Origin: Candidatus Staskawiczbacteria bacterium
GTDB lineage: Bacteria; Patescibacteriota; Minisyncoccia; Minisyncoccales; Staskawiczbacteraceae
Length of the DNA stretch: 33,103 bases
Assembly: GCA_903839895.1 (NCBI GenBank)
Contig: CAIMDW010000005.1
Location: 1 to 33,103, forward strand
Reading direction: 5' to 3'
Below are positions 1,221 to 29,091 of the stretch, one piece after another. Made by a program: the position numbers and the translations under genes. Position 1 is the first letter of the stretch; the number at the start of each line of letters is the position of its first letter. Under the pieces are notes generated by a model. It made no database searches. It was not told where the DNA came from and was given only the letters and a program-made list of their open reading frames with translations.

Positions 1221-1232
1221 AATTTTAAACAA

Positions 1233-2294: not shown

Positions 2295-2298
2295 AATA

Positions 2299-3171
2299 AT
2301 GAAAAATTTTCTCGACATATCTTCGCAATACTCTGATTTTGAAAATTCCAAAGCTGTTGTCATTTCTTTTCCATTTGAAAAATCCACGACATTCGGCAAG
2401 GGGACTAGATTGGGTCCCAAAGCAATAATTTCAGCTTCTGGGCAAGTTGAATTATTTGATGAGGAATTGGAGAGAGAGGCATACAAAGAGATCGGTGTAG
2501 CCACTCTGCCTCAAATTATGCCGGGCAAAACAAAAGCAAAATTATTCGATCCTTTGGTAAAAAAAGTGGGCGAGGTTGTTTCAAAAGGGAAATTTCCAAT
2601 AATTTTAGGAGGAGAGCATACTATCAGTATCGGCGGAGTTTTAGGGGTTGCGGAAAGTTATAAGACATTTTCAGTGTTGCATTTTGATGCGCATGCCGAT
2701 TTGCGCGACAGCTATGAAGGCAATAAGTTTTCGCATGCCTCAGCTATGCGAAGAGTTTTAGAAATACAAAATGTCAAAAATTTGGTTTCCGTAGGGATAA
2801 GGAATATCAGCAATGAAAAAAGCGAGGGAAGCGAGTTTGATTTTTACAAAAAAAATCAAAATAAGATAAAGATATTTTGGGCGAAAGACAAGGAAAAATG
2901 GAACTTAGATGAATTATTATATACTTTAGATGAGAATGTTTATCTTACCTTTGATGTGGATGCGTTTGATCCTTCAATTATGCCTTCAACCGGCACGCCG
3001 GAGCCCGGAGGTCTTGGATGGTATGAAACTTTGAAAATTATAAGAAAAGTGGCTTCGCAGAAGAAAATAATTGGGGCAGATATCGTTGAACTTTGCCCGA
3101 TTCCCGGATTAATCGCTCCGGACTTTTTAGCCGCTAAGCTTGCCTATAAAATAATTAATTACGTATTGTAG
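2299..3171 (+). CDS. speB: agmatinase (arginase/ureohydrolase family)
   Basis: Mn-binding ureohydrolase motifs: GGEHTISIG, HFDAHADLRD, SHASAMRR, TFDVDAFDPSIMPSTGTPEPGG. Sits directly after pdaD and the DHS-like gene. Confidence 0.85.
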   Translation: MKNFLDISSQYSDFENSKAVVISFPFEKSTTFGKGTRLGPKAIISASGQVELFDEELEREAYKEIGVATLPQIMPGKTKAKLFDPLVKKVGEVVSKGKFPIILGGEHTISIGGVLGVAESYKTFSVLHFDAHADLRDSYEGNKFSHASAMRRVLEIQNVKNLVSVGIRNISNEKSEGSEFDFYKKNQNKIKIFWAKDKEKWNLDELLYTLDENVYLTFDVDAFDPSIMPSTGTPEPGGLGWYETLKIIRKVASQKKIIGADIVELCPIPGLIAPDFLAAKLAYKIINYVL

Positions 3172-6620: not shown

Positions 6621-7493
6621 ATGAAAATTAAAACAATCGCGATATTTGTTTTGATTGTTGCGGCATTCGCCGCCGGCTTATTGCTTAAAGAGCACTTTTT
6701 TGAGTTTTACGACAGCTTGAACAAACAAGTTGCGGAAATGCAAAAAATAAACATTGGTTCAGTTATTTCAAAAGTTGGAAAGCAAATGCTCACTCCGCCG
6801 CCTCTGCAGGTGCTGGGGGCGGAGAAACAAGTTGATTTGCTCAAGAGTCAGATAATTTTGCAGACGAATGTCCAAAGGCATCAAAATGGGAGTCTGCCAG
6901 CTTTAATAGAGAATAAACGACTTGATGAGGCGGCTTCGGCCAAGGCCAGCGATATGTTTGAAAAGCAATATTTTGAGCATATTTCGCCCTTGGGGCTTGA
7001 TCCTGGAAAATTAGTCCAGAATCATGGATATGAATTCATAGTGGCGGGTGAGAATTTAATCTTAGGGAATTTTTCCTCAGAGGAAGAAGTTGTCGATGAT
7101 TGGATGGCCAGTTCGGGTCATAGGGCAAATATTTTAAATAATAGATATACGGAAATTGGGGTGGCAATTGTTAAAGGCACTTACCAGGGCCAAACTGTCT
7201 GGATGGGAGTGCAGGAATTCGGCTTTCCGCTGTCAGCCTGTCCTTCACCAGACAATATTTTAAAAAATACCATAGATTCAGACAAGCAACAGTTAGACTT
7301 TTTATATTCAGAGCTTGGCACAAATAAAAAACAAATTGACAGTTTAGACCAAACTTCACCGACTTACAGTCAAATGGCGGACGATTATAATAAATTGGTA
7401 GCGCAGTATGAAGCTTTGTCGAGCGACACGAAAAAAATTATTTCAAATTATAACAATCAAGTTAGTATTTTTAACAATTGCGTTTCAGAATAA
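6621..7493 (+). CDS. secreted/membrane-anchored CAP (SCP/YkwD-like) domain protein with coiled-coil tail
   Basis: N-terminal TM/signal segment IAIFVLIVAAFAAGLLL. CAP-like core: LDEAASAKASDM...GENLILG...VDDWMASSGHRANILNNRYTEIGVA. Confidence 0.65.
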   Translation: MKIKTIAIFVLIVAAFAAGLLLKEHFFEFYDSLNKQVAEMQKINIGSVISKVGKQMLTPPPLQVLGAEKQVDLLKSQIILQTNVQRHQNGSLPALIENKRLDEAASAKASDMFEKQYFEHISPLGLDPGKLVQNHGYEFIVAGENLILGNFSSEEEVVDDWMASSGHRANILNNRYTEIGVAIVKGTYQGQTVWMGVQEFGFPLSACPSPDNILKNTIDSDKQQLDFLYSELGTNKKQIDSLDQTSPTYSQMADDYNKLVAQYEALSSDTKKIISNYNNQVSIFNNCVSE

Positions 7494-7503
7494 TTTTTCA
7501 ATA

Positions 7504-7722
7504 ATGGAAATTAAAATAGGAAAATACAGGCATTTTAAAGGAGATTTGGTGGAAGTAATCGGCAAAGCTCTTCACAGTGAAAACTTAGAAGAGTTTGTGG
7601 TTTATAAGCACATCAATGGTAAGCACATCGGCCATTTATGGATAAGGCCTATAAAAATGTTTTTAGAAGAAGTTGAGCGAAACGGCAAAAAAATAAAAAG
7701 ATTTGAATATCTAGAAAAATAA
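7504..7722 (+). CDS. DUF1653 domain protein
   Basis: MEIKIGKYRHFKGDLVEVIGKALHSENLEEFVVYKH...WIRPIKMFLEEV is the DUF1653 pattern. I start at the ATG at 7504, not at 7408, which would overlap the CAP gene. Confidence 0.6.
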   Translation: MEIKIGKYRHFKGDLVEVIGKALHSENLEEFVVYKHINGKHIGHLWIRPIKMFLEEVERNGKKIKRFEYLEK

Positions 7723-7724
7723 TT

Positions 7725-8357
7725 ATGCTGGAAGAAATTAAAGAAAAAGCGAAAAAGTTTTTTGTTGGCGTGAATGCTTGTCATGAGTGGGAGCATACGG
7801 AAAGAGTCTGCAATTTGGCGATGCATATCGGCAAAAAAGAAAATGCGGATTTGGAAGTTTTAGGATTAGCGGCAATCTTGCACGACATTGGAAGGAAAGA
7901 CCAAGATGACTCAAATGGAAAAATCGACCATGCAGAAAGAGGTGCTTTTTTAGCAAAAGGAATTTTAGATAATTCTGGTTTACCGAAAGAAAAAATAGAT
8001 AATATTTTGCATTGCATAGAATCGCATAGGTTCAGAAACGACAAAATACCTCAAACGATTGAAGCAAAGATTTTATTTGATGCTGACAAAATAGATTCCA
8101 TTGGAGCTATTGGCGTTGGCAGGGACTTTTCTTTCGCTGGATATTTGGGAGCAAAAGTGCATGATAAAAATGTTAATTATGATGACACAGCGCAATATAC
8201 AATAGACGATACGGCGTATAGGGAGTATATGATAAAATTGAGGCATGTGAAAAATAAAATTTTAACTGATGAAGGTAAAAGAATCGCAGAAGACAGGCAT
8301 AATTTTATGGTAGATTTTTTTGAAAGATTGAATAAAGAAGTTGACGGAGAATTATAA
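7725..8357 (+). CDS. HD-domain metal-dependent phosphohydrolase
   Basis: EHTERVCNLA...LAAILHDIGR...LFDADKIDSIGAIG are HD superfamily motifs. Confidence 0.8.
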   Translation: MLEEIKEKAKKFFVGVNACHEWEHTERVCNLAMHIGKKENADLEVLGLAAILHDIGRKDQDDSNGKIDHAERGAFLAKGILDNSGLPKEKIDNILHCIESHRFRNDKIPQTIEAKILFDADKIDSIGAIGVGRDFSFAGYLGAKVHDKNVNYDDTAQYTIDDTAYREYMIKLRHVKNKILTDEGKRIAEDRHNFMVDFFERLNKEVDGEL

Positions 8358-8368
8358 TTTTACAAAAA

Positions 8369-8827
8369 ATGAAAATAGCAATTGTTTCAGACACGCATAA
8401 TAACTGGGCTAATTTCAAGAAGGCGATCGAGTGGATTAAGAAAGAAAATATCCAGGTGATTTTGCATTGCGGGGATATTTCCAGCCAGGAAATGATTGAT
8501 GACGCGCGAAAACTTTTTGGCGGGCAAATTAAATTTGTAAAAGGAAACGCGGATTTTAATTTGGATTTGCCGGAAAAAATGGAGTTGGAAATTGATAATA
8601 AAAAAATTGCTTTTGCGCATTTTCCCGATACTGCAAAAAAGTTGGCACAATCGGTAAAATTTGATATGGTTTTTTACGGCCATACACACAGGCCGTGGGA
8701 TGAGAAAGTTGGTAAAACCCACATGATAAATCCAGGAGAATTGGCAGGCCAATTTTACAAGCCGTCTTTTGCAGTTTACGAAACAGCTACGGGAAGCCTG
8801 GAACTTAAAATTTTGGAGAAGCTTTAA
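8369..8827 (+). CDS. metallophosphoesterase, YfcE/MJ0936 family
   Basis: MKIAIVSDTHNN...ILHCGDI...VKGNAD...FAHFPD...FYGHTHRPW...INPGE are calcineurin-like phosphoesterase motifs. Confidence 0.8.
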   Translation: MKIAIVSDTHNNWANFKKAIEWIKKENIQVILHCGDISSQEMIDDARKLFGGQIKFVKGNADFNLDLPEKMELEIDNKKIAFAHFPDTAKKLAQSVKFDMVFYGHTHRPWDEKVGKTHMINPGELAGQFYKPSFAVYETATGSLELKILEKL

Positions 8828-12343: not shown

Positions 12344-12373
12344 GCAAAAAAAGAGCCGTGCTTTCGCATGGCT
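12344..12373 (-). terminator. rho-independent terminator for the minus-strand DHOD-like gene
   Basis: The minus strand reads agccatgc-gaaa-gcacggct followed by cttttttt: an 8-bp stem with one mismatch, a GAAA loop and a T-run. It abuts the stop codon at 12373-12375. Confidence 0.55.
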
Positions 12374-13272
12374 TATGTCAGTTTAAAAAGAGATTCGCTC
12401 CGTAATCGTTTTACGATTGATGTAGGACGGCATGGATGCCATAAATGCACAGATCCGAAACTGAATGCTTCAAATCCTTCTTCATGCATTATAGGCACGT
12501 CGGCGTAGTCCCAGATTCCTGGAACAATGACTGGTTTTTTAGCCAATGATTTTATTTTCTTTGCGAAAATCCAGGTGTGTGATTGGGCAATTTTACCTGA
12601 AACTCCGCCTCCGCCATATTTTGCAAACGGGCTTTTGAGCGAAGGAAAAATTGTTTCCCAAGGAACGCTGTTGATTGCGTAGGCTGAAACCATTTCATCG
12701 ACTTCCGGTATGATTTTTTCCAAATCATGGACAGTTGAAAGCTTTAGAATCACGGGATGCTTAGTCCTGGCTTTTACTGTTTCGCATGATCTGATTACTC
12801 TTCCAGAGTTGGTAAGTATGTCACATTGCGTGCTGGGGCAGGAAGCATCGATTTCTATCGCCACTAAATCGCAGTTGTTAAGCTGGGGCGCCATGATTTT
12901 CAGCTCACAGGGTTCTCCGAATAGAGATCCTATCAGCTTCAACTTATTGCGGTTTACTGTGCCTCCGATTTTCTTCATCCACCAGTCGAAGCCCGGGTTT
13001 GAAAGCCCGACAGCATTTACCGCTCCGACAATTTTCCCGTCTTGCCAATACGGTTTTACGCAATCCAATGGATTCCACCACTTAAAGTTTCCTTTGCGAG
13101 GCTTTAATGTGATGGTTTTCATCGTATGGGCAAAAAGGGAAGTGTCGATCAGTCTGACAAATATAAAGGGCTTTTCCCATAAATGCCCCCTGCCGTCATA
13201 TCCCATAGCTCCCGCGGAAGTGACAAATTCGATTTCAGTTTCTTTGTTGCGCTCGACAGAAAGTACAAACAT
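12373..13272 (-). CDS. dihydroorotate dehydrogenase-like FMN-binding TIM-barrel oxidoreductase (PyrD class-1-like)
   Basis: VNAVGLSNPGFDWW, AIEIDASCPST, VILKLS, YGGGGVSGKIAQ, PVIVPGIWDY...GFEAFSFGS follow the class-1 DHOD motif order. SD GGAGGA precedes the ATG. Confidence 0.65.
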   Translation of the reverse strand: MFVLSVERNKETEIEFVTSAGAMGYDGRGHLWEKPFIFVRLIDTSLFAHTMKTITLKPRKGNFKWWNPLDCVKPYWQDGKIVGAVNAVGLSNPGFDWWMKKIGGTVNRNKLKLIGSLFGEPCELKIMAPQLNNCDLVAIEIDASCPSTQCDILTNSGRVIRSCETVKARTKHPVILKLSTVHDLEKIIPEVDEMVSAYAINSVPWETIFPSLKSPFAKYGGGGVSGKIAQSHTWIFAKKIKSLAKKPVIVPGIWDYADVPIMHEEGFEAFSFGSVHLWHPCRPTSIVKRLRSESLFKLT

Positions 13273-13316
13273 GGCTTTCCTCCAACAGGTTTCTTCTAAA
13301 TCAAAGTGCTAGATAC

Positions 13317-13345
13317 TTATTATCATAAAACAGTATTGATTGCAA
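13317..13345 (-). promoter_or_regulatory. candidate sigma-70-type promoter for the DHOD-like gene
   Basis: Minus strand: TTGCAA (13340-13345), 17-nt spacer, TAATAA (13317-13322). The AT-rich background makes this weak. Confidence 0.3.
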
Positions 13346-13360
13346 AATTTTAATAATAGG

Positions 13361-13388
13361 TTGACAATATTTATATTAGTTGTAATAT
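13361..13388 (+). promoter_or_regulatory. candidate sigma-70-type promoter of the radical SAM / precursor operon
   Basis: TTGACA at 13361-13366, 16-nt spacer, TAATAT at 13383-13388. Confidence 0.5.
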
Positions 13389-13431
13389 AAGCCAAAGTAT
13401 GTTATTTGAAAATTTCATAAGGAGTATGGTT

Positions 13432-14838
13432 ATGATTGAAAATGATGAGGTTTTAATTAAATCGCGGTTTGTTCAAGTTGTTGAAGGTGGTGGTAATGCC
13501 ATAATATGGCATTCTCTTTTTGGAAATCCTAAGAGAGTCTCTGTGGATACGTTGGATTTGCTTAATATTTTTTCCAGCCCACTCTCATTAAATGACTTTC
13601 TAAATGAATATGATATTGGGGAAAATGGTATAGAGGTCATTAATGATTTGGCCGAAGCCCATTATATTATACCTAATGGTTTTGATGAGAGAGCACATCT
13701 GGAAACGATTACTCAGGAGCACGAGAAGGTCATTTCTGCTAGCCAGTTAGCTAGGCGGTTAGATTTGAAGCTTACAGAGGAATGCAATTTTCGCTGTAAA
13801 TACTGTATTCATTTTAAGAGCCTGGATATCTCCGACCGGATTAATAACCCCGAGAAGTTTATGTCGTGGGAAATCGCTAAACATGCTGTGGACGAATACG
13901 TATTACTAATGAAGCATCTAGACAAAAAAGTTTCAAGAATAACCTTTAGCGGTGGTGAGGTATTGCTTACCTGGGACATTCTTGAGCGGGTCGTGCTTTA
14001 CTATAAAGAACGATACGAGTTTGATTATCCGTGCAGTTATGCCATAATAACGAACGCGTCCTTGATAACTGTCGAGATTGCCAAGAAACTCAAGGAATAT
14101 CAGATTTCTGTCGCATCTAGTATTGATGGACTTGAACAAGTCAATGATCTGGTCAGAATCACTAAATCAGGAAGTGGAACATTCAATCGTATTGTTTGTG
14201 GTTTGGACAATCTGAAGGATCAAGGGGTCCCGGTCGATATGTGTATAACGGTTACCGACGACAATTTCCCATATATTGATGAACGCATGGTTGACTGGGC
14301 AGTTGAACGCGGAATGGATCATCTCAGGTTTACTCCAGACACTATAAACTTATTTAATATACCTGTTCAGGAGTTGGTAATATGGTTATTAAAACTCAGA
14401 GCGTATGGGAAAACGAAGGGAGTCGATGTGACAGGAGGCTGGCATCGCCCTTTTTCCAACTTCAATGACTCTGCGCTTGATAAGCTTTGCGGATATTGCA
14501 CCCCTATTTGCGGAGATACAATATCTGTCAGCCCTGCCGGTTTAATTTATGGATGTTGTTATAACACCAACAGTATTGGAAGCATAAAACAAATAGGTTG
14601 TCTTGGTAATGAGAAAAAATATCGGGAGATGATTTGTGATAATGTTGTTGGAAGAAGACGTGAGTGTTTTGATTGTGAAATAGAAGGACAGTGCATTGGA
14701 GGTTGCAGCATCACGCGTGAGTCCTCAACGGATGCGTCAAATCCGAAGGTAACACAAATGTGTGAATTGCATCGCCAAATGACTAGAGAATTATTACTTG
14801 AAGAACTTACTAATTGGAATTCTGACATTTTCAAATGA
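13432..14838 (+). CDS. radical SAM / SPASM-domain peptide-modifying enzyme with an N-terminal RRE-like (PqqD-like) region
   Basis: Radical SAM cluster motif CNFRCKYC (CX3CX2C). Complete SPASM motif: C-X9-G-X4-C (CGDTISVSPAGLIYGC), then C-X2-C-X5-C-X3-C (CFDCEIEGQCIGGC), then a later Cys (MCELH). About 110 aa precede the rSAM core. AAGGAG at 13419-13424 favours the ATG at 13432; the ORF is open from 13399. Confidence 0.9.
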   Translation: MIENDEVLIKSRFVQVVEGGGNAIIWHSLFGNPKRVSVDTLDLLNIFSSPLSLNDFLNEYDIGENGIEVINDLAEAHYIIPNGFDERAHLETITQEHEKVISASQLARRLDLKLTEECNFRCKYCIHFKSLDISDRINNPEKFMSWEIAKHAVDEYVLLMKHLDKKVSRITFSGGEVLLTWDILERVVLYYKERYEFDYPCSYAIITNASLITVEIAKKLKEYQISVASSIDGLEQVNDLVRITKSGSGTFNRIVCGLDNLKDQGVPVDMCITVTDDNFPYIDERMVDWAVERGMDHLRFTPDTINLFNIPVQELVIWLLKLRAYGKTKGVDVTGGWHRPFSNFNDSALDKLCGYCTPICGDTISVSPAGLIYGCCYNTNSIGSIKQIGCLGNEKKYREMICDNVVGRRRECFDCEIEGQCIGGCSITRESSTDASNPKVTQMCELHRQMTRELLLEELTNWNSDIFK

Positions 14839-14870
14839 CCCTAAATTATAAAGAAGGGAGGTGATAAAAG

Positions 14871-15005
14871 ATGGACCATCAGTTAAAGACGGACCAACAA
14901 TCGAAGCAAAAGCCCAAGAAGACTTTAAAGCTTTCGGTTCAGGACATGCCCAAACAACAGACAATTGTCTGTGATCAGTATGGGAGTAGCTGCAACGGCT
15001 GTTAA
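14871..15005 (+). CDS. 44-aa candidate RiPP precursor peptide (not in the ORF track)
   Basis: My translation: MDHQLKTDQQSKQKPKKTLKLSVQDMPKQQTIVCDQYGSSCNGC*. A strong SD AGGGAGGTGA (14855-14864) sits upstream of the ATG. The ORF begins 33 nt after the rSAM stop and is followed by a strong terminator. It has a K/Q-rich leader-like N-terminus and 3 Cys in the last 11 residues. Confidence 0.6.
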   Translation: MDHQLKTDQQSKQKPKKTLKLSVQDMPKQQTIVCDQYGSSCNGC

Positions 15006-15025
15006 TTTCTTGTGCTTTATCGTAA

Positions 15026-15062
15026 GCCCTATTTGGAATATTCCAAATAGGGCATTTTTATT
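15026..15062 (+). terminator. rho-independent terminator closing the rSAM-precursor operon
   Basis: gccctatttggaa (15026-15038) pairs perfectly with ttccaaatagggc (15041-15053), followed by atttttatt. Confidence 0.75.
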
Positions 15063-15116: not shown

Positions 15117-15341
15117 ATGGATGTTTTCACAACAGGAATCATAACTCTATTGGCCGTTGCAGCGATTTTTTACATTATTTTGTTTTCTTTTATTTATTAC
15201 TGGCACTTAAAAAAAATAACTTATGTGGTGGTGCCCTTAATTTTCACATTTGAATTTTTTTTGACAGGATTTTTTATAGTCGCAATCGTTTCAATCATTC
15301 TTAACTATCTGCCCGTATTAATAAGGGCTCTCAATTTTTAG
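15117..15341 (+). CDS. small two-helix membrane protein, function unknown
   Basis: 74 aa with two long hydrophobic segments (GIITLLAVAAIFYIILFSFIYYW and VVVPLIFTFEFFLTGFFIVAIVSIIL). The stop is 2 nt before the next ATG. Confidence 0.55.
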   Translation: MDVFTTGIITLLAVAAIFYIILFSFIYYWHLKKITYVVVPLIFTFEFFLTGFFIVAIVSIILNYLPVLIRALNF

Positions 15342-15343
15342 CT

Positions 15344-16741
15344 ATGGCAGGTTTACCTAAATATTTATTTTGGTGGGAATGGGTGAGGAAGATTATTTGG
15401 GACCCCTTTTGGTGGCTGATTTTATTTGCAATTATCTTATGGGTTCCTTTTTTGCGTGTTTGGTGGTGGGTTGTTTTCCCATGGATGCTGATGGCGCAAT
15501 TGAAGACAGTTTATATTTGGTGGCTTAACTGGGATTTTGATTATGCAACAAAAAGGAAATGGGTGGTTTTGGAAGTCGTTCCGCCTAAAGAAATTTTAAT
15601 TCCATTGAAAGCAATGGAAGATGTTTTTGCGGCAATCTGGCCCTTAATGGACGTGGGAAACTTTAGGGAGAGATGGTGCGATGGTGAATTGGCGTATGGA
15701 CCATACTGGTGTTCGTGGGAAATTGTCAGCCTTGAGGGCGCGATACATTTTTATATAAGATGTTTACAGGAGCATCGCACTAGCATTGAGTCTGCGCTTT
15801 TCGGGCATTACCCCGATGCAGAAATTTATGAAGTGCCAGATTATGTGAAATTGGTCCCGCCCACCGTTCCGAATGACGAATGGGATATGTATGGCGAAGA
15901 CTGGGATTTAGTTGAGGATGATGCGTATCCAATAAAGACTTATGATACATTTTTTGAGCCTCAAGGTGAAAGGATTTCAGCTGAAGAAAAGAGGATGGAT
16001 CCAATTATTTCCTTACTGGAAGGAATGTCAAAACTTGGCCCTGGAGAGTATTATTGGGTACAGTTCACCACTGTTCCGGTTGGAAATATTGATGAACCGA
16101 ATTGGATGAAAGACGGGACTAAGATAATTAATAAGCTTGCGCAGAGGCCGGAAAAGAAAGTAACTAGCTTTTTTGATGATTTATTTAAAACTTTCAAAGA
16201 ATTGGCAATGGGTCCCAATAAAGAAGGTTCAGGAGAAGGCGCAAAATATTCCTGGGAGACGAATGAAGAAACGGGAGAGAAACAAATATCGCTGACTACC
16301 GGCGAGAGAGAGATTATTTTAAATGTTGAAAACAAATTAAAAAAGCCGATCTTTAGGACGAATATCCGCGGAGTTTATGTGGCCAAACGAGAAAACTGGA
16401 AGCCTGCAAACAGGATTGTGTTGAGAACTTACATGGGTCATTTTAGCACAGTAAACATGAATAGTTTCAGATTTCAGGCTAAAACAAGACCAAGGGTACA
16501 CTTTTTTATGAGGCAGAGAAGAGTTTTTTTGAGAGCCAGGAAAATGTTCAGGATGGCAGTTTTAAGATTTCCTCCGCTGTATCCCGACAGACGAAGTTTG
16601 TGCCCTATTTTGAGCACCGAAGAAATGGCTACGCTTTATCACCTCCCATTTAAAATTTCTGGAATGGTTGCCCAGTCTTTGCAGAAGATAGAATCGAAAA
16701 AATCCGGCCCACCACCGAATTTGCCGATTGAAGAATTATAA
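15344..16741 (+). CDS. membrane-anchored protein with a Trp-rich N-terminal TM region and a large soluble domain, function unknown
   Basis: 465 aa. The N-terminus YLFWWEWVRKIIWDPFWWLILFAIILWVPFLRVWWWVVFPWMLM is followed by a soluble region (VVLEVVPPKEILIPLKAMEDVF...SWEIVSLEGAIHFYIRC...YPDAEIYEVPDY...). I recognise no catalytic motif. Confidence 0.7.
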   Translation: MAGLPKYLFWWEWVRKIIWDPFWWLILFAIILWVPFLRVWWWVVFPWMLMAQLKTVYIWWLNWDFDYATKRKWVVLEVVPPKEILIPLKAMEDVFAAIWPLMDVGNFRERWCDGELAYGPYWCSWEIVSLEGAIHFYIRCLQEHRTSIESALFGHYPDAEIYEVPDYVKLVPPTVPNDEWDMYGEDWDLVEDDAYPIKTYDTFFEPQGERISAEEKRMDPIISLLEGMSKLGPGEYYWVQFTTVPVGNIDEPNWMKDGTKIINKLAQRPEKKVTSFFDDLFKTFKELAMGPNKEGSGEGAKYSWETNEETGEKQISLTTGEREIILNVENKLKKPIFRTNIRGVYVAKRENWKPANRIVLRTYMGHFSTVNMNSFRFQAKTRPRVHFFMRQRRVFLRARKMFRMAVLRFPPLYPDRRSLCPILSTEEMATLYHLPFKISGMVAQSLQKIESKKSGPPPNLPIEEL

Positions 16742-16752
16742 AAAAATTATTT

Positions 16753-18585
16753 ATGCCAAAGGATTTAACATTCGTTGCCAGAACAAACTTTCGCGGTGCC
16801 GAGCAAAAATTCGGGATTAGAAGGAAAGATAGGCGCCAGCACATGTATGTGATTGGGAAAACCGGAACCGGTAAAACCCAGTTTTTAAAGAACATGGCAA
16901 TGCAGGATATCCATAACGGCGAAGGGCTTGCCATTATAGATCCGCATGGAGAGTTTGTGGAAGAAATTTTAGACAGCATTCCGCCTCATCGGATGAATGA
17001 TGTGGTTTATTTTAATCCTGCGGACATGGATTTTCCAGTCAGCTTCAACATTATGGATGTTCCAGATCCGAGGTATAAGCACTTGATTGCTTCGGGTCTG
17101 ATTGGAATTTTCACTAAAATTTGGGCCAATGTTTGGTCAGCCAGAATGGAATATATTTTGGCTAATTGCATTTTGGCTTTGCTGGACACTCCAGGAACCA
17201 CGCTTTTGGGCATACCAAGAATGCTGGTTGACAGGGATTATCGGCAGAAAATCATCAACAATTTAAAAGACCCGGTTGTAAAATCATTTTGGGTCAACGA
17301 ATATGAAGAATGGGAACCGAGGTATAGGAATGAAGCAATAGCTCCTGTGCAAAACAAAGTGGGACAGTTTTTGAATGTTTCGTTTGTCAGGAATATTGTT
17401 GGTCAGGCGAAAAACACCATTGATATCGACGATATAATGAATAGCGGAAAAATTTTGCTGGTCAATGTTTCCAAAGGAAGAATTGGAGAAGATAATTCGG
17501 CTATTTTGGGAGCTATGCTTATTACAAAAATACAGCTGACGGCGATGGAGCGAGTCAGGATTCCCGAAGACGAAAGAAAAGATTTTTATCTGTATGTCGA
17601 CGAGTTCCAGAATTTTGCCACAGATTCTTTTGTGAATATTTTGTCTGAAGCCAGAAAATACCGCTTAGATTTGATTATTGCCCACCAATATGTCGGCCAG
17701 CTGGTTACAGATACGAGCACGGCAGTCAGAGATGCTGTTTTTGGAAATGTGGGAACTATGGCTGTATTTAGAGTGGGAGCGGAAGATGCGGAATTTTTAG
17801 AGAAAGAGTTTGTCCCGGAATTTGAGCAGACCGATTTGATCCGTTTGGATAACCGTAATGTTTATACAAAGCTGATGATAGATGGCATTACTTCCAGGCC
17901 ATTTTCAGCCACAACTATCACTATAGATCCAACTGTCAAAGACGATAAAAAAAGGGAAGAAATAATCAAGCAATCCAGGGCAAAGCATTCTAAAAGCGTA
18001 AAAGTGGTGGAAGATGAAATTAACCGATGGGCTTCAAATATGGAGGCTCTAAGCGTTCCTGCGAAAGGCACTCCCGATATTTCCAATCTCCAGGATTCCA
18101 AGCCATTTTACCAATCCAATAATCCGAAATCTCCTAGTTCGAATCAGACAAAGCTGTACGACGCCATTTGTTCCAATTGCGGGAAGGCTACGAAAGTTAT
18201 TTTTCCTCCAGAGCCAGGACGCGCTGTTTATTGCAAAGCTTGCCTAAAAAAAATGAAGGATGAAAAGCCGGTAAAATGGACAAATAATTCGCCTGCGCAA
18301 GCAAATGCGCCAGCGCATGCCGAGCCGTCGAGCCAGCAGGCAAATAAGCAGGCGGGCGATTCGGCTTTAGCGGATTTAGGCATAGAATTTTCCCAGACAA
18401 AAGCGCAAAAAATAGAAAATATCTCTTTTCATAATCCAAAACGTAACGAAGAACACCACGAAAAGCCGAAGAGAAAAGAAATAAATCTGTCTGATTTGAA
18501 AAAAGCGCTGGAAGAATCGTTGGAAAAAAAGGATGGAGGCAAAGAGGAAAAGCAAACGGATTCGGGCGAAACAGTCAAACTTTAA
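16753..18585 (+). CDS. VirD4/TraD/TrwB-like (type IV coupling protein family) P-loop ATPase with a C-terminal CxxC-x17-CxxC zinc-ribbon tail
   Basis: Walker A: VIGKTGTGKTQF. IIDPHGEF...VYFNPAD...PVSFN is a TrwB/TraD-like arrangement. Walker B: DFYLYVDEFQNF. Also ARKYRLDLIIAHQY. The tail contains CSNCGKATKVIFPPEPGRAVYCKAC plus a low-complexity K/E-rich end. No N-terminal TM helices. Confidence 0.8.
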   Translation: MPKDLTFVARTNFRGAEQKFGIRRKDRRQHMYVIGKTGTGKTQFLKNMAMQDIHNGEGLAIIDPHGEFVEEILDSIPPHRMNDVVYFNPADMDFPVSFNIMDVPDPRYKHLIASGLIGIFTKIWANVWSARMEYILANCILALLDTPGTTLLGIPRMLVDRDYRQKIINNLKDPVVKSFWVNEYEEWEPRYRNEAIAPVQNKVGQFLNVSFVRNIVGQAKNTIDIDDIMNSGKILLVNVSKGRIGEDNSAILGAMLITKIQLTAMERVRIPEDERKDFYLYVDEFQNFATDSFVNILSEARKYRLDLIIAHQYVGQLVTDTSTAVRDAVFGNVGTMAVFRVGAEDAEFLEKEFVPEFEQTDLIRLDNRNVYTKLMIDGITSRPFSATTITIDPTVKDDKKREEIIKQSRAKHSKSVKVVEDEINRWASNMEALSVPAKGTPDISNLQDSKPFYQSNNPKSPSSNQTKLYDAICSNCGKATKVIFPPEPGRAVYCKACLKKMKDEKPVKWTNNSPAQANAPAHAEPSSQQANKQAGDSALADLGIEFSQTKAQKIENISFHNPKRNEEHHEKPKRKEINLSDLKKALEESLEKKDGGKEEKQTDSGETVKL

Positions 18586-18636: not shown

Positions 18637-20358
18637 ATGAATAGAGAAATTAAACAATGTCAAAATTGCAAGCAGAGCTTTACCATCGAGCCCGACGATT
18701 TTGCGTTTTACGAAAAGTTAAAAGTGCCAGCTCCGACTTTTTGTCCCGATTGCCGGTATCAGCGGCGCATTGCAAACCGAAACGAATGGAATTTTTACAA
18801 GCGCGATTGCGGGCTTTGCAAAAAAAGCATGGTTTCTATTTATAATCCAGCTTATTTTGGGCCGGTGTATTGCAACGATTGCTGGTGGTCTGATAAATGG
18901 GACCCTCTGGCATACGGAAGAGATTTTGATTTTTCAAAAACTTTTTTTGAGCAGTTCTCCAAACTGCGTTTTGAAACACCCCGTATAACGTTGGCAAATT
19001 CGAAAAGCATTAATTCAGAATACAGCAACCAATCGGAAGAAAACAAGAATTGTTATATGGTTGTCGCCACTGGCACAAGCGAGAATTGCATGTATGGAAA
19101 TTGGTATCAAGGAAGCAAGGATTGCGTGGATTGCTGGGCGATGTACAAATGCGAAATTATGTATGAATCCCTGAACTGTCGAGATTGTTACAAATGTTTT
19201 TTTGTGGAAGACAACAAGGATTGCCACGATATGTATTTTTCAAAAGATTGCCGGCTGTGCAGTAATTGTTTTGGATGTGTCAGCTTGCGCGGGAAAACTT
19301 ATTGCTGGTTCAATGAACAGCTTTCTAAAGATGAATATCAAAAACGTCTGGCAGAAGTTTTATGGACTCAAGAAAATATTGATAATCTGAGAAAAAAGCT
19401 TGATGAGTTTTCGCTTCAGAAACCGGTGAAATTTGAGCATAGCTATACAAAAAACGAAAATTCAACGGGAGATTACATTGGCGGAAATAAAAACGTGCAT
19501 TACGGATTCAATGCTAGGCTTTCTGAAAATTTAAAGTTTGGGCAAGATGCCTGGGAAGCGCGCGATTGTATGGACCTTACAGAAACTTTAGACAATGAAT
19601 TGGAATATGAAGGCGAGGGTTCCGGGTGGGGAAATAGGAACATAGCTTCTGCAAAATCTTGGTGGAATAACGACGCGTTGTATTCTGATTTGAATTTTAA
19701 TTGCAATAATATTTTTGGATGCGTTTCGCTTCATGCAAAGTCATACTGTATTTTAAACAAGCAATATTCTGAAAAAGAATATTATGATTTGAAAGAAAAG
19801 ATAATTGCTCACATGAGAAAAAATGGGGAATGGGGCGAATTTTTCCCAGCTGAAATATCGCCGTTTCCATATAATGATTCTTTGGCTCAGGATTATTTTC
19901 CAATGACAAAAGATGAAGTTATTGCGAAAGGATTGAGATGGCACGACCGCGATGCCAGGGATTACAAAGTTACTTTGCCTCACGAAAATCTTCCCGAAAA
20001 AATAGGCGACGCAAGCGATTCTATTCTTAAAGAAGTTATAAGTTGCAGTTTACATGGTTTTCGATGCGCGACAGCTTTTAGGCTGCACCCAGCCGAGCTT
20101 CAATTCTATCGACAGTTTAATTTGCCAATTCCGCACAAGTGCTTTCCTTGCAGGCTTCAGGAAAGATTGGCAAGGCGCAACCCGCGCAAGCTTTGGCACC
20201 GCCAGTGCATGTGCCTGCCTGCCGGCAGGCAGGCGACAAACACTGCCAAACATTTCCATGGCGATAAACCTTGTCCTAACGAATTTGAAACTAGTTATGC
20301 TCCCGACAGGCCGGAAATTGTTTATTGCGAAGAGTGCTACAATAAAGAAGTAGCTTAA
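18637..20358 (+). CDS. cysteine-rich multi-zinc-ribbon protein, paralog 1 (function unknown)
   Basis: 573 aa with about 35 Cys by my count. The N-terminus has four CxxC pairs (CQNC...CPDC...CGLC...CNDC). The central module NCFGCVSLRGKTYCWFNEQLSKDEY recurs as NIFGCVSLHAKSYCILNKQYSEKEY. C-terminal: AFRLHPAELQFYRQFNLPIPHKCFPCR...YCEECYNKEVA. Confidence 0.85.
   Translation: MNREIKQCQNCKQSFTIEPDDFAFYEKLKVPAPTFCPDCRYQRRIANRNEWNFYKRDCGLCKKSMVSIYNPAYFGPVYCNDCWWSDKWDPLAYGRDFDFSKTFFEQFSKLRFETPRITLANSKSINSEYSNQSEENKNCYMVVATGTSENCMYGNWYQGSKDCVDCWAMYKCEIMYESLNCRDCYKCFFVEDNKDCHDMYFSKDCRLCSNCFGCVSLRGKTYCWFNEQLSKDEYQKRLAEVLWTQENIDNLRKKLDEFSLQKPVKFEHSYTKNENSTGDYIGGNKNVHYGFNARLSENLKFGQDAWEARDCMDLTETLDNELEYEGEGSGWGNRNIASAKSWWNNDALYSDLNFNCNNIFGCVSLHAKSYCILNKQYSEKEYYDLKEKIIAHMRKNGEWGEFFPAEISPFPYNDSLAQDYFPMTKDEVIAKGLRWHDRDARDYKVTLPHENLPEKIGDASDSILKEVISCSLHGFRCATAFRLHPAELQFYRQFNLPIPHKCFPCRLQERLARRNPRKLWHRQCMCLPAGRQATNTAKHFHGDKPCPNEFETSYAPDRPEIVYCEECYNKEVA
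18678..18710 (+). repeat. 33-nt exact DNA repeat, copy A (partner at 24038-24070)
   Basis: ctttaccatcgagcccgacgattttgcgtttta is identical in paralogs 1 and 3 and encodes FTIEPDDFAFY. Confidence 0.9.
20213..20234. repeat. 22-bp perfect GC-rich palindrome inside Cys-rich paralog 1
   Basis: gcctgcctgcc/ggcaggcaggc is self-complementary. It lies in a locally GC-rich patch of an AT-rich genome and in a segment absent from paralog 3. Confidence 0.9.
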
Positions 20359-20469
20359 AGGTCGAGGTTATTTAAGCGAATAAGGCATCGCCGTCATTAA
20401 AGCAGTAGGGCAATCGATATATTATACTTTAATTTCGGCGTGAATTTACTCGCTTGCTCATAAATTCAT

Positions 20470-20775
20470 ATGATCTTTATTTATGTGCCGTGCCAGAATT
20501 TGGATACGGCTAAAAATATTGCTAAGCTTTTGGTGGAAAAGAGGATGGCGGGCAAGGTGGATATTTTGCCTACCGATTCTTTTTTTCGCGCTGGCGAAAA
20601 TGTCGCCGAGGTTGCGGGGGCGGCCATGATTATTATGACCATAGACAAACATGTCCAAGATATAGAGGATGTTGTCAGGGAACATTATCAAGATGGCGTC
20701 CCTTGCATGGCCACAATTTCTTTGTATCGGCTGAATCGCGACTTTAAAGACTGGCTGATTGCTGCCACTGACTAG
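20470..20775 (+). CDS. cutA: CutA1-like divalent-cation tolerance family protein
   Basis: 101 aa. IFIYVPCQNLDTAKNIAKLLVEKRMAGKVDILP...MIIMTIDKHVQDIEDVVREHYQDGVPCMATISLYRLNRDFKDWL follows the CutA1 pattern (v-T-x-p-x-x-x-A-x-x-i-a-x-x-L-v-e-x-r-l-A-x-C-v-n-i..., H-p-Y-e-x-P-e-i, y-x-x-W-l). Confidence 0.55.
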   Translation: MIFIYVPCQNLDTAKNIAKLLVEKRMAGKVDILPTDSFFRAGENVAEVAGAAMIIMTIDKHVQDIEDVVREHYQDGVPCMATISLYRLNRDFKDWLIAATD

Positions 20776-20779
20776 GAGA

Positions 20780-20808
20780 TTGATAAAATTGCCTTAAAAA
20801 GCTATTAT
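20780..20808 (+). promoter_or_regulatory. candidate sigma-70-type promoter for the second ATPase / Cys-rich module
   Basis: TTGATA (20780-20785), 17-nt spacer, TATTAT (20803-20808), 35 nt before the ATG at 20844. Confidence 0.45.
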
Positions 20809-20843
20809 TAGAAAATAGTTAAAGTCTTAAATTACAAACTTTC

Positions 20844-22307
20844 ATGTCAGCTGAAAACAATAGAATTCGCAGGTTTAAATTGGCGCCTCCTCCACCGGAG
20901 TTGCCTATTTATGGTTCAGTAGACCCCAAAGAATGCTCATTTATTGGCAAGACCAATTATGAAGCGGCTTTGCAGGAGCAAAAGTTCATTTTTGGGGTAA
21001 AAAGGGTGGACAGGCGCAGGCATTTGTATATTGTGGGAAAATCCGGAGTGGGAAAGTCAAAGCTTTTGGAGCTTTTTGTGCGCCAAGACATTGGGTACGG
21101 CCACGGGCTTTGCTTTATCGATCCTCACGGAGATGTTATTGATGCAATCTTGGATTTTATTCCGGAAAACCGAATTGACGACGTGGTGCTTATTGACCCA
21201 TCCGACTCCAAGTATCCAATTTCATTTAACCCCTTGGCAAATATAGACCCAAGCTTCAAGCACCAGCTCACGCAGGGCTTGATTGAGGTGCTAGAAAGGC
21301 AATTTGGCGCCAACTGGACACCCAGGCTTGAGCACGTGTTCCGCTTTACTTGCCTGGCTCTCTTGGATTATCCTCACGGCACTATGCGAGGCATGATTTC
21401 CATGCTTACCGACAGGAATTATCGACAGCTTGTGGTGGAATATATTCAAGACGACATGGTAAAACGCTTTTGGGCCATTGAATTTGCCGATTGGTCGGAA
21501 AAGTACGATACGGAAGCCATTATTCCATTGGTAAACAAATTGGCGCAATTTTTATCTGACCCTGCATTGCGCGGAATTTTTGGCCAAGAAGAAAACAAGG
21601 TTGATTTGGCAAAGCTGATGAATGAAGGGAAAATTATTTTGATAAACTTGTCCAAAGGAAAATTGGGAGAAGAAAATGCCAGCTTTTTCGGCTCAATGTT
21701 TATTACAAAAATAAAGCAGGCTGGCATGGAGCGCGCATCTCTTGCTGAAGACGAAAGAAAAGATTTTTACCTTTATGTCGACGAGTTCCATAACTTAATG
21801 ACTGAAACTTTTGAGAATATATTGTCTGAAGCCAGAAAATACGGCATCTGTCTTACCGTTGCTCACCAGTACATGGGCCAATTATTGCAAAAAGTCCAAC
21901 AGGCGGTTTTGGGAAACACGGGAACTATTATTGTCTTCCGCGTGGGCGGTGAGGATGCAGTCAGATTGGAACCTGAAATGGCACCAATATTCGGAGTCAA
22001 AGATATGGTAAACTTGGGAGTCCAGAATTTTTACATAAAAGAAACAATTGACGGAGAGGCTTATGATCCTTTTTCTGCTGAAACATTAAGCGTTTTGAAA
22101 CCGAATCACAGGTCTTTTAAAAAAGAAATTATTGATATGTCGCGTGAAAAGTATACTATTCCGGCCGAAGCGGCGCAAAAACTTATGCAACAGGAAGAAT
22201 CAAAAATTATGAGAAGCTCGCACGAAAAATCCATAATCCAGGGAAAAGGTAAAGGCCCGGAGGAAACCAAAAAACCGGAAGAAAAGACAGAAGAACCATT
22301 AATATAA
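20844..22307 (+). CDS. VirD4/TraD/TrwB-like P-loop ATPase, paralog 2 (no zinc-ribbon tail)
   Basis: Walker A: IVGKSGVGKSKL. Also FIDPHGDV...VLIDPSD...PISFNPL. Walker B: DFYLYVDEFHNL. Also ARKYGICLTVAHQY. Colinear with ATPase-1, including nucleotide-identical stretches (gaagacgaaagaaaagattttta at 17566-17588 and 21747-21769). Confidence 0.8.
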   Translation: MSAENNRIRRFKLAPPPPELPIYGSVDPKECSFIGKTNYEAALQEQKFIFGVKRVDRRRHLYIVGKSGVGKSKLLELFVRQDIGYGHGLCFIDPHGDVIDAILDFIPENRIDDVVLIDPSDSKYPISFNPLANIDPSFKHQLTQGLIEVLERQFGANWTPRLEHVFRFTCLALLDYPHGTMRGMISMLTDRNYRQLVVEYIQDDMVKRFWAIEFADWSEKYDTEAIIPLVNKLAQFLSDPALRGIFGQEENKVDLAKLMNEGKIILINLSKGKLGEENASFFGSMFITKIKQAGMERASLAEDERKDFYLYVDEFHNLMTETFENILSEARKYGICLTVAHQYMGQLLQKVQQAVLGNTGTIIVFRVGGEDAVRLEPEMAPIFGVKDMVNLGVQNFYIKETIDGEAYDPFSAETLSVLKPNHRSFKKEIIDMSREKYTIPAEAAQKLMQQEESKIMRSSHEKSIIQGKGKGPEETKKPEEKTEEPLI

Positions 22308-22317
22308 AATAAATTTT

Positions 22318-23979
22318 ATGCAGCCAGAAACAAAACAATGCGAAAAGTGTAAAAAGGATTTTGACATTTTGGCAGATGATATTCCGTTTTATGAAAAAAT
22401 GGATTTGCCTTTGCCGGCAATGTGTCCGACTTGCCGATTCAAATATCTTTTGGCATTTTGGACGTTTGGCAGATTTAGGATTGCCAAGTCCGCTTTGAGT
22501 GGAAAAACAATCATAACGGTCCTTCCAGAATCTGTTCCTTTTCCCATTTACGACCGCGCAGAATTTGTTTCGGACGACTGGGACCCACTAACTTATGGAA
22601 AAGATTATGACGCCTCGCGCCCTTTTATGGACCAGCTTGTTGAATTGCAATCAAAAGTTCCACATCCCCATCAATGCGGAGTTAAGAATTTGAATTGTGA
22701 CTGGACTGATGATGTTTGGGAATCAAAAGATGTGTATTTATCCAGGTCAGGAGCCTGGTGTGAATCCATAAATTATAGTTATCGCATGGTTAGTTCTAAA
22801 AATTGTACTGACCTCACTTATTGTTGGGAGCTTGAATATTGTTATGATTGCTTATATTGTTTCAAAAGTTATAATTTGAAATACTCTTTCAATTCTCGAG
22901 ATTGCATGGACAGCTTATTTTTATACGACTGCAGAAATTGCCAGAATTGCTTTATGTGCTGGAATTTAAGGAACCAGAAATATTGCATTTTAAACCAGCA
23001 ATATTCAAAAGAAGAGTACGAAAAAAAGATTCAAGAATACAATTTAAAATCAAGAAAGGAGATAGAGGAATTAAGAAAAGAATTTTGGCAGCATATCCGA
23101 CAAGATGCCGTGCATCGCGAAAATTGCGATGTCAAAGCAGTAAACTCCGTAGGAAATTTTCTTAACAATGATAAAAATTGTTATCAATGCCATTTCATTG
23201 AAAATTCCGAGAACAGCCGTTATACTTTGCGAGGTTGGGGAGGAAACGAAGATATTGATGTTATAGGTCCATACAATACAGAAAAATGCGGCACATGTTC
23301 AATGGATCAATATGGCTACGGAAATGTATGTAATCTTTATACAACTTCATGCCGATACTCTGTTTACTTGGATAATTGCGAGGAATCTGAATATTGTTTC
23401 GGATGCGTGGGGCTTAGAAAGAAAAAATATTGCATTTTGAACAAGCAATACACCGAAGAAGAATATAAAAATCTGGTTGAAAAAATTAAAAGTGATATGA
23501 AAAATAGGGGAGAATGGGGGAAATTTTGGCCGCTTTCTTCAGCCTATGCAGGCTACAACCTTTCTTTAGCTCAAATGCAATATCCAATGGCAAAGGATGA
23601 AGCTGTACAATTTGGCGCAAAATGGGAAGAAATTATCGAGCCTCACTATGAAAATATTGTCAGCGGAGATGATTTGCCAGATACAATCGGCGAGGTGGGC
23701 GATGAAATTGTAAAACAGCGCATACTGTGCCCCGAAACAAAATTGAGCTATAATATTACCAAAGAGGAATTGCAGTTTTACCGCGAGTACGGCATTCCGC
23801 TTCCAAGCAGGCATTTTGACTGGCGCACTTTGGAACGATTCAAACCCTTCAGCCAAATGGTAACTTTGCAAAAAGGAACTTGCCATTACTGCAAAAAAGA
23901 AATTGAGCATTATTACAGCCCCGAGCTTGGCTTCGAAAAAATAGCCTGCCTGGAATGCTACCAGCGCGAAGTGGCGTAA
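22318..23979 (+). CDS. cysteine-rich multi-zinc-ribbon protein, paralog 2
   Basis: 553 aa. CEKCKKDFDILADDIPFYEKMDLPLPAMCPTCR...; NCQNCFMCWNLRNQKYCILNQQYSKEEY and YCFGCVGLRKKKYCILNKQYTEEEY; C-terminal ELQFYREYGIPLPSRHF...CHYCKKE...CLECYQREVA. Confidence 0.85.
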   Translation: MQPETKQCEKCKKDFDILADDIPFYEKMDLPLPAMCPTCRFKYLLAFWTFGRFRIAKSALSGKTIITVLPESVPFPIYDRAEFVSDDWDPLTYGKDYDASRPFMDQLVELQSKVPHPHQCGVKNLNCDWTDDVWESKDVYLSRSGAWCESINYSYRMVSSKNCTDLTYCWELEYCYDCLYCFKSYNLKYSFNSRDCMDSLFLYDCRNCQNCFMCWNLRNQKYCILNQQYSKEEYEKKIQEYNLKSRKEIEELRKEFWQHIRQDAVHRENCDVKAVNSVGNFLNNDKNCYQCHFIENSENSRYTLRGWGGNEDIDVIGPYNTEKCGTCSMDQYGYGNVCNLYTTSCRYSVYLDNCEESEYCFGCVGLRKKKYCILNKQYTEEEYKNLVEKIKSDMKNRGEWGKFWPLSSAYAGYNLSLAQMQYPMAKDEAVQFGAKWEEIIEPHYENIVSGDDLPDTIGEVGDEIVKQRILCPETKLSYNITKEELQFYREYGIPLPSRHFDWRTLERFKPFSQMVTLQKGTCHYCKKEIEHYYSPELGFEKIACLECYQREVA

Positions 23980-23996
23980 AATAAATAATAAAGTAT

Positions 23997-29057: not shown

Positions 29058-29090
29058 CAAAAAACAGGACTTAAAGTTCTGTTTTTTGTT
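29058..29090. terminator. bidirectional rho-independent terminator (serves the small membrane gene on + and rnpB on -)
   Basis: caaaaaacaggac (29058-29070) pairs with gttctgttttttg (29076-29088), with one G-U pair and a 5-nt loop. There are A-runs and T-runs on both sides. Confidence 0.7.
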
Positions 29091-29091
29091 G

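Follow-up and report, generated by a model that had tools for sequence, protein, structure and literature searches.

A radical SAM enzyme gene followed at once by a very short open reading frame (ORF) raises the question of whether the two together make a modified peptide and, if so, by which chemistry. We addressed this question in a 33,103-nt stretch of contig CAIMDW010000005.1 from a Candidatus Staskawiczbacteria bacterium (hereafter the window), in which the gene for a 468-aa enzyme (13432–14838, + strand) precedes a 44-codon ORF (14871–15005, +). An earlier reading of the letters alone, here called the sequence-only reading, had proposed that the ORF encodes the precursor, and the enzyme the maturase, of a sactipeptide- or ranthipeptide-like member of the RiPPs (peptides that ribosomes synthesize and that are modified post-translationally). 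Because of the domain architecture of the enzyme and the co-variation of enzyme and peptide, we regard the two as very probably a RiPP precursor–maturase pair. The best reading of the locus is a new radical SAM precursor–maturase family, found across the candidate phyla radiation (CPR), that acts on a core with a Cys near its C terminus. The family is new and uncharacterised, within a well-known kind of system, the radical SAM/SPASM RiPP cassettes.

A small gene conserved beside the enzyme

The 44-aa product, MDHQLKTDQQSKQKPKKTLKLSVQDMPKQQTIVCDQYGSSCNGC, had been thought to come from an unlisted ORF; the ORF proved real, but a 44-aa gene call for it does exist in the protein collection (P0116). 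The gap between the enzyme stop and the ORF is 32 nt rather than the 33 nt first counted, and the strong Shine-Dalgarno (SD) sequence proposed ahead of the ORF was found as GGGAGGTGA at 14856–14864 (+), read from the sequence. A strong SD, mostly AAAGGAGGTGA or a near variant, preceded the peptide in nearly every homologous locus. Wherever the enzyme was at least 33% identical and the flank long enough, comparison of these loci revealed a related small ORF adjoining the enzyme gene, which answers the main objection that the sequence-only reading had raised against itself, namely that the ORF might not be conserved next to orthologous enzymes. The small ORF lies directly downstream of the enzyme in the window and in L001–4, L081–83, L085–88, L090–92, L096 and L161–165; the exception is L084, where it lies 800 nt upstream. 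Three more loci with enzymes 31–35% identical (L171–173) carry an SD-coupled downstream peptide with a Cys among the last 3 residues, and their cores read …NPQCRAGGCC, …FPGKRTGCK and …KCGRPDQGGC. Several synonymous codons are used for each of the conserved residues of the peptides (Val, Pro, Leu, Cys, Ser and Asn), which indicates that selection acts on the protein. The small ORF is thus a real gene: in more than 25 loci it is conserved, coupled to an SD and subject to purifying selection. A profile search with the peptide retrieved 28 gene calls, all of them 'hypothetical' or unnamed.

Analysis of the peptides revealed two common features, a leader motif of the form h-x-h-x-V-K-x-L-P-K and a Cys that falls among the final one to four residues, usually preceded by a second Cys 4–7 residues upstream of it. 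In the window the leader motif is LKLSVQDMPK (14925–14954, +), whose P27 is invariant in the peptide alignment A2, and the core, the presumed modification site, is CDQYGSSCNGC (14970–15002, +; C34, C41, C44), with C41 invariant in the same alignment. All family peptides are basic (pI 8.9–10.8) and hydrophilic, and none contains a signal peptide or a double-glycine cleavage site. The peptides next to the enzymes with 61% (L161), 54% (L162), 49% (L081) and 49% (L164) identity end in …LPKLLRVVCDQYGRGCSGC, …VPKQAEPACDFYGSACRSGCN, …LPKQPSVSCDFYNCD and …LPKRKTFCCEQFNCDGQ, respectively, and the cores of the nearest relatives are CDQYGRGCSGC, CDFYGSACRSGCN, CDFYNCD and CCEQFNCDGQ. Most peptides of the family conform to …K[SAP]LPK[RL]K[VA]L[NC]TC[QR]xPSNC[HG]; most cores are accordingly of C-x5-C type (…TCQxPSNCH), with just one Cys in one distant member. 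The C-x6-C-x2-C tail that had been expected to be conserved occurs only in the closest relative, the 54% relative having C-x6-C-x3-C.

The enzyme subclades track the peptide classes: enzymes P0001–6 accompany C[DE]x[YF]…C cores, and enzymes with a GFW motif, described below, accompany TCQxPSNCH cores. This pattern suggests that peptide and enzyme co-diversify. A class-B (…PSNCH) cassette at 41% enzyme identity, with a peptide ending in …LPKRKALNTCQAPSNCG, was found on CAZSQN010000011.1 (L002) in a bin labelled 'uncultured Gammaproteobacteria'; this label may reflect mis-binning or an occurrence of the family outside the CPR. Three other homologues (L005 from Planctomycetota, 29% identical, L094 and L095) were set aside as sources on the peptide; they belong to different families and give no information on it. 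In L094 the enzyme gene is followed by an apparent major facilitator superfamily transporter, judged by eye, and in L095 by another radical SAM gene.

Enzyme architecture and relation to named maturases

The enzyme ORF is open from 13399 to 14838, which corresponds to the 479 aa at the upper end of the 469–479 aa given by the sequence-only reading, but the probable start at ATG 13432 yields 468 aa, in agreement with the database gene call of this contig; an SD of its own, AGGAG (13420–13424, +), read from the sequence, lies 7 nt before this ATG. Among Pfam models only Radical_SAM and Fer4_12 matched, and the 61.8 bits of PF04055 (cut-off 29.5) place the enzyme in the radical SAM superfamily, as had been anticipated. 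The CX3CX2C cluster motif recognised earlier, CNFRCKYC (residues 118–125; C118, C122, C125; 13783–13806, +), is invariant in alignment A1, which holds 34 enzyme family members, and the seven SPASM cysteines are likewise invariant there. An AlphaFold2 model of the enzyme (predicted local distance difference test, pLDDT, 90; predicted template modelling score 0.88) places alternating strands and helices at residues 109–334, as expected of a radical SAM barrel.

The SPASM cysteines, C356, C375, C412, C415, C421, C425 and C444 (14497–14763, +), follow the pattern C356, G370-x4-C375, C412-x2-C415-x5-C421-x3-C425, C444, and this region aligns with the SPASM domains of TigE, CteB and the anaerobic sulfatase-maturating enzyme (anSME). 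The SPASM motif of the sequence-only reading was thus retained with a changed starting point: it had been counted from C360, which together with C353 and C376 is an additional Cys specific to the window, whereas the first family-invariant Cys is C356. The two SPASM profiles it had named did not support the call, since PF13186 gave no match at E≤1 on the isolated C-terminal domain and TIGR04085 reached 23 bits on the enzyme (E 8e-5), just under its cut-off of 27; the SPASM domain here is a divergent one.

A similar situation was seen at the N terminus, where a PqqD-type RiPP recognition element (RRE) had been suspected in the first ~110 residues. PF05402, the Pfam PqqD model, gave no match at E≤1 on the isolated domain, but the structure spoke for an RRE. 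Residues ~7–81 (13450–13674, +), including a nearly invariant WHSLFGxP strand, form a winged-helix domain of RRE type in the model and in the Foldseek comparison. The isolated N-terminal 103 residues were modelled with a pLDDT of 92.5, with strands at 14–19, 22–27 and 31–37 and helices at 38–46, 53–59 and 66–75; this predicted winged helix of three strands and three helices ahead of the catalytic domain has the fold of an RRE. Its top Foldseek matches were mostly RREs of RiPP enzymes (TigE, TbiB1, MccB, ThcOx, PbtF, CteB and lasso B1). Since the Pfam PqqD and SPASM models gave no match, both domain assignments are founded on structure, the Cys pattern and homology to TigE.

Searches with the enzyme found about 80 homologues with 31–61% identity. 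The named hosts were all CPR bacteria (Azam-, Magasanik-, Uhr- and Kuenenbacteria, 'Parcubacteria group' and 'Patescibacteria group'), the others being labelled just 'bacterium', and Ryanbacteria were named among the homologous genome loci. Public annotations of the homologues are generic ('radical SAM protein', 'arylsulfatase regulator', 'Elp3'). An exhaustive profile search extended the set to more than 150 clusters at 50% identity, each scoring at least 267 bits. Six proteins of this wider clade (P0267, P0271, P0272, P0274, P0276 and P0293) are fusions of 1118–1164 aa with a family-like radical SAM/SPASM unit at the C terminus; with three matched stretches, they may be multi-radical-SAM fusions.

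The enzyme matched 67 NCBIfam models below threshold and none past its cut-off, the best being PapB, CcpM, anSME, RumMC and QhpD. Structural ranking of the model against the PDB gave TigE first (8VPO; template modelling score, TM, 0.82/0.86; E 1.7e-31), followed by CteB (0.68/0.71), anSME, ChlB and SuiB. The family profile scored 253 bits against TigE (E 2.4e-74) and 133 bits against CteB, and the window protein by itself reached E 2.8e-39 against TigE, at a Foldseek identity of ~22%. The nearest characterised enzyme is therefore the cyclopropyl synthase TigE and not a thioether synthase.

TigE and TvgB form (methyl)cyclopropylglycine within repeated TIGSVS or TVGG motifs (PMC10878394). Cyclopropyl synthases are defined by a strictly conserved GYW, whose Tyr ligates auxiliary cluster I (Aux I) and is essential, the TigE variants Y339A, Y339F and Y339C being inactive (PMC10878394). 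The window enzyme shares with TigE/TvgB (PDB 8VPO; PMC10878394, PMC9062424) the RRE–radical SAM–SPASM layout over its full length, the seven SPASM Cys and a G-x-W at the same position, but HMMER alignment to 8VPO showed this motif to be G-G-W (residues 335–337; 14434–14442, +), with Gly in place of the Aux I-ligating Tyr. GFW occupies the position in 65/84 family enzymes and GYW in 4/84, the subclade of the window having G[GSCA]W; among 150 representatives of the wider clade, x was F in 29, T in 25, Y in 25 and S in 10. The substrates differ as well. Instead of TVGG/TIGSVS repeats, the candidate substrate here has a single, non-repetitive, Cys-containing C-terminal core, and the family peptides lack the repeats with conserved Val/Ile that mark precursors of cyclopropyl synthases. 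The cassette also lacks a second radical SAM gene and an ABC transporter gene, both present in a genuine GYW locus (L168). Because the Tyr of GYW is replaced in the family, whereas the GYW enzyme P0083 of L168 sits in a true cyclopropyl-synthase-type cluster, sequence comparison indicates that the CPR family is a sister group of the cyclopropyl synthases rather than a member.

In L168 (1–66 and 132–2987), a peptide ending in …TIGGTIGGTIGGTIGGTIAEC lies upstream of P0083, which is one of the four GYW enzymes and shares 29% identity with the window enzyme; the second radical SAM/SPASM gene and the ABC transporter follow, an arrangement that resembles a TIGG-repeat cyclopropyl-synthase cluster. 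P0070/P0071 (L166, 2171–3586) also carry GYW and are 40% identical to the window enzyme; a terminator comes straight after the gene, with no peptide downstream, and these enzymes are orphans that stand between the CPR family and the cyclopropyl synthases.

In its layout the cassette resembles the SCIFF system (ScfA/ScfB; CteB structure 5WGG), with which it shares a minimal two-gene arrangement with no protease or exporter, a ~45-aa peptide that bears Cys at its C terminus, an RRE–radical SAM–SPASM maturase and a clade-wide distribution, CteB being also the second-best structural match. It differs in that the SCIFF maturase model TIGR03974 gave 71.4 bits against a cut-off of 425, in that the family peptides have 1–4 Cys (three in the window) where SCIFF has six in about 45 residues, with no NCBIfam match to the peptide, and in that the order here is enzyme then peptide and the hosts are CPR instead of Clostridia. 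The maturases of PapB/freyrasin-type ranthipeptides (NF047865) provided the top NCBIfam match, 123.7 bits over residues 121–444, and likewise act on a Cys-containing substrate, but this score is far under the 340-bit cut-off and the core here has no repeated C-x3-D motifs. PapB-type clusters also have a layout different from that of this cassette. With anSME (4K36–39) the enzyme shares a radical SAM–SPASM core that acts on Cys, and most family members have one more Cys between SPASM Cys one and two, reminiscent of the fully Cys-ligated Aux I of anSME; anSME, however, has no RRE, and here there is no sulfatase or C/S-x-P-x-R motif, the candidate substrate being a dedicated small peptide.

Candidate chemistry and alternative explanations

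In the mechanism that we consider most likely, the 44-aa product of 14871–15005 would serve as the precursor, and the enzyme would use its N-terminal RRE to bind the basic leader with its conserved motif; by analogy with the leader complexes of CteB and TbiB1, this motif probably pairs with the conserved WHSLFGxP strand. The radical SAM core would cleave SAM reductively and abstract an H atom from the short C-terminal core, and the two SPASM clusters would accept an electron. The most likely outcome would be a cross-link at the conserved near-C-terminal Cys, for example a thioether of the sactipeptide or ranthipeptide type. As in SCIFF cassettes, the module includes no dedicated protease or exporter. 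The modification would fall within C34–C44. Thioether formation on the Cys core is our leading guess, held tentatively, because the near-C-terminal Cys is the sole feature common to all cores and because the best NCBIfam matches, though all below cut-off, are Cys-directed or thioether maturases. The sactipeptide/ranthipeptide label of the sequence-only reading is supported only in part: the enzyme is an RRE–radical SAM–SPASM enzyme with a Cys-tailed peptide, but TigE is its nearest relative and the PapB, SCIFF and RumMC models stay far below their cut-offs.

Several points weigh against this reading. The pairing and the chemistry are alike computational assignments, drawn from sequences and models; the Pfam SPASM and PqqD profiles do not match the enzyme domains; the closest characterised enzyme forms a C–C bond, in a cyclopropane, and not a thioether; and every thioether-maturase model falls below its cut-off on the enzyme. 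The spacing between the Cys (C-x4 to C-x7) and the residues between them vary, and the one distant member with a single Cys adds to this, so that no fixed donor–acceptor pair can be named. The ligation of Aux I is ambiguous too. An eighth Cys at position 365 (NSxCVxPSG) is present in 72/84 family enzymes, whereas the window enzyme, P0002 and P0003 have Ser at 365 together with C360 and C376 (residues 353–376; window 14488–14559), and an open iron site on Aux I for a substrate Cys, as in CteB, which the seven SPASM Cys and the lost Tyr ligand had at first suggested, was dropped from our account for this reason. It is the peptides of the enzymes with Ser365, C360 and C376 that contain a third Cys, a possible co-variation bearing on Aux I ligation, seen in three close relatives that are not independent observations.

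A thioether is not the only product that such a pair might make. A relative of TigE/TvgB could install a C–C bond, or a bond of another kind, in the core, and the candidates include a cross-link at an aromatic residue or Pro between the Cys, an intraresidue cyclisation, an anSME-like oxidation of Cys and a change at the C terminus. The large lead of TigE over CteB in both profile score and structural match favours this alternative, as do the retention of G-x-W across the wider clade with a varied x, which suggests diverse chemistries, and the aromatic residue or Pro between the Cys in peptide classes A and B. Cyclopropanation in particular is disfavoured by the loss of the Tyr without which TigE is inactive (PMC10878394) and by the cores, which contain no repeated Val/Ile motif and in L162 and L164 are devoid of Val, Ile and Leu beyond LPK; moreover, the one universal core feature remains the near-C-terminal Cys. 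We hold a non-thioether chemistry of the same pair to be possible though somewhat doubtful. If, instead, the peptide gave rise to an intracellular cofactor or metal-binding molecule, in the manner of pyrroloquinoline quinone (PQQ) or mycofactocin, and not to a secreted product, this would suit a conserved unit that has no protease, exporter or immunity gene, encodes a peptide with neither signal sequence nor double-glycine site, and is widespread among genome-reduced CPR lineages. The PQQ and mycofactocin pathways, however, need further dedicated enzymes that are absent here, no PqqE or MftC model was among the 25 best NCBIfam matches (none of which reached its cut-off), and the core sequence diversifies fast; the cassette is also an accessory insertion or deletion, missing from a close relative (L170, below), which argues against a core cofactor. 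Such a role is improbable.

It is more improbable by far that the enzyme matures another protein in the style of anSME or QhpD, with the small ORF downstream being incidental. The corresponding models do align over most of the enzyme (TIGR03942, anSME, residues 127–464; TIGR03906, QhpD, residues 104–461), and some homologues are publicly annotated 'arylsulfatase regulator'. Yet the scores are far below cut-off (102 vs 349 and 90 vs 453, respectively), no sulfatase or quinohemoprotein amine dehydrogenase partner gene was found in the window or the related loci, the enzyme carries an RRE domain, and the small ORF is the conserved, SD-coupled and selected gene described above. The grouping with anSME or cofactor-type radical SAM enzymes that the sequence-only reading had named as fatal to its proposal was therefore not observed. 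The precursor–maturase pair remains the preferred reading, with the Cys-directed cross-link as its tentative chemistry.

Much of bacterial diversity belongs to the CPR/Patescibacteria, whose genomes measure ~1 Mb. Surveys often report few biosynthetic clusters in them, or none. The cassette recurs in many Parcubacteria lineages, and literature queries that combined CPR, Patescibacteria or Parcubacteria with radical SAM, SPASM, RiPP or ranthipeptide returned no description of the family, some of the queries being swamped by unrelated 'spasm' and 'tiger' papers. A bolder proposal, which we consider rather unlikely, sees in the locus the first example of a RiPP class spanning the CPR/Patescibacteria, in which a TigE-related enzyme that has lost the Aux I Tyr makes an undescribed cross-link on a very short Cys-tailed core. 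If true, these ultra-small episymbionts would have their first natural-product family, which might be used in interaction with their hosts. As the enzyme branches beside the cyclopropyl synthases and lacks their catalytic Tyr, knowledge of its product would also reveal how the chemistry of that radical SAM–SPASM clade diverges. In addition, precursors that gene callers often miss could be found with the peptide motifs …LPKxKVLNTCQxPSNCH and …PKxxxxxC[DE]x[YF]…C.

Boundaries of the cassette and neighbouring genes

The window is chromosomal: it encodes SecA, SecD/F, PGK, MurJ and RNase P RNA, the last, a bacterial class A RNA (29090–29443, −; 122 bits vs a gathering score of 100), confirming the assignment. 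Its SecA is 80–84% identical to proteins named Candidatus Staskawiczbacteria; the host is therefore a CPR/Parcubacteria bacterium, in line with the Patescibacteria host that had been suspected.

Comparison with a 738-kb Staskawiczbacteria contig (L170) revealed the same gene order around the cassette site: SecA … SecD, SecF, a sigma-r4/HARE-HTH protein and an opposite-strand dihydroorotate-dehydrogenase-like gene, then a 74-aa membrane protein, a ~460-aa protein and an ATPase resembling type IV coupling proteins (T4CPs). L170 lacks exactly the radical SAM gene and the peptide and is otherwise syntenic, and DNA similarity to the window restarts at 15056, immediately past the cassette terminator. 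The cassette, two genes in ~1.7 kb at roughly 13300–15055, thus forms a discrete accessory module that was inserted or deleted as a self-contained piece. A scan of viral contigs for phage carriage found no substantial match (>250 residues) above 28% identity. The minimal, self-contained radical SAM/SPASM and precursor operon in a CPR genome that the sequence-only reading had described was thus recovered, with no protease, exporter or immunity gene conserved alongside it.

The right edge of the module is an intrinsic terminator (15026–15062, +) with a 12-bp stem and a 4-nt loop at 15026–15053 ahead of a T-run; it had been predicted at this place with a 13-bp stem. A terminator-like hairpin with a T-run follows the peptide in 19/22 loci. 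The sigma-70-like promoter TTGACA-16-TAATAT proposed at 13361–13388 (+) is also present, with 10/12 positions matching, but 12 promoter-like sites were found across the region against 9.7 expected in shuffled sequence, which is not above chance in this AT-rich DNA, so that the single site taken alone is weak; a TTGACA-type site lies at most 125 nt upstream of the enzyme in 9/20 homologous loci. From promoter to terminator, the module would be transcribed as a unit of its own.

Other genes recur near some cassettes. In eight class-B loci (L004, L082, L083, L085–L088 and L092) a RimI/AAC(6')-like GNAT acetyltransferase gene lies just past the peptide terminator, 100–900 nt after the enzyme stop, and in five (L001, L003, L084, L086 and L090) a Pol-beta-type nucleotidyltransferase gene adjoins the cassette; neither adjoins it in the window. 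Such neighbours may serve in tailoring or immunity, or may simply reflect inherited synteny. L003, from Azambacteria, contains two further radical SAM/SPASM genes (1150–2244 and 7182–8579) within 3 kb of the cassette, one of them with a weak PqqD-like N terminus.

Divergent from the cassette in the window, the gene at 12373–13272 (−) encodes a weakly dihydroorotate-dehydrogenase-like protein (PF01180, 32.7 bits) for which NCBIfam equivalogs are far under cut-off; the same position is occupied in L170. Downstream, 15117–18585 holds a conserved trio, the 74-aa membrane protein, a 465-aa DUF8128-like protein and a 610-aa TrwB/TraG-like T4CP-like ATPase with a C-terminal treble-clef zinc finger. 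The trio adjoins the cassette in L162 and L164 too, and a functional link was considered; none is required, as L170 has the trio without the cassette. A second T4CP-like ATPase (20844–22307) lies within 18637–25652, flanked by three 550–573-aa proteins in which no significant Pfam family was found. A preprint reports 5,713 VirD4-like T4CPs across CPR genomes, mostly far from virB4. At the other end of the window, 555–3171 encodes consecutively a pyruvoyl-dependent arginine decarboxylase, a deoxyhypusine-synthase-family protein and an arginase/agmatinase-family protein, a polyamine module, possibly of homospermidine type, in a CPR genome.

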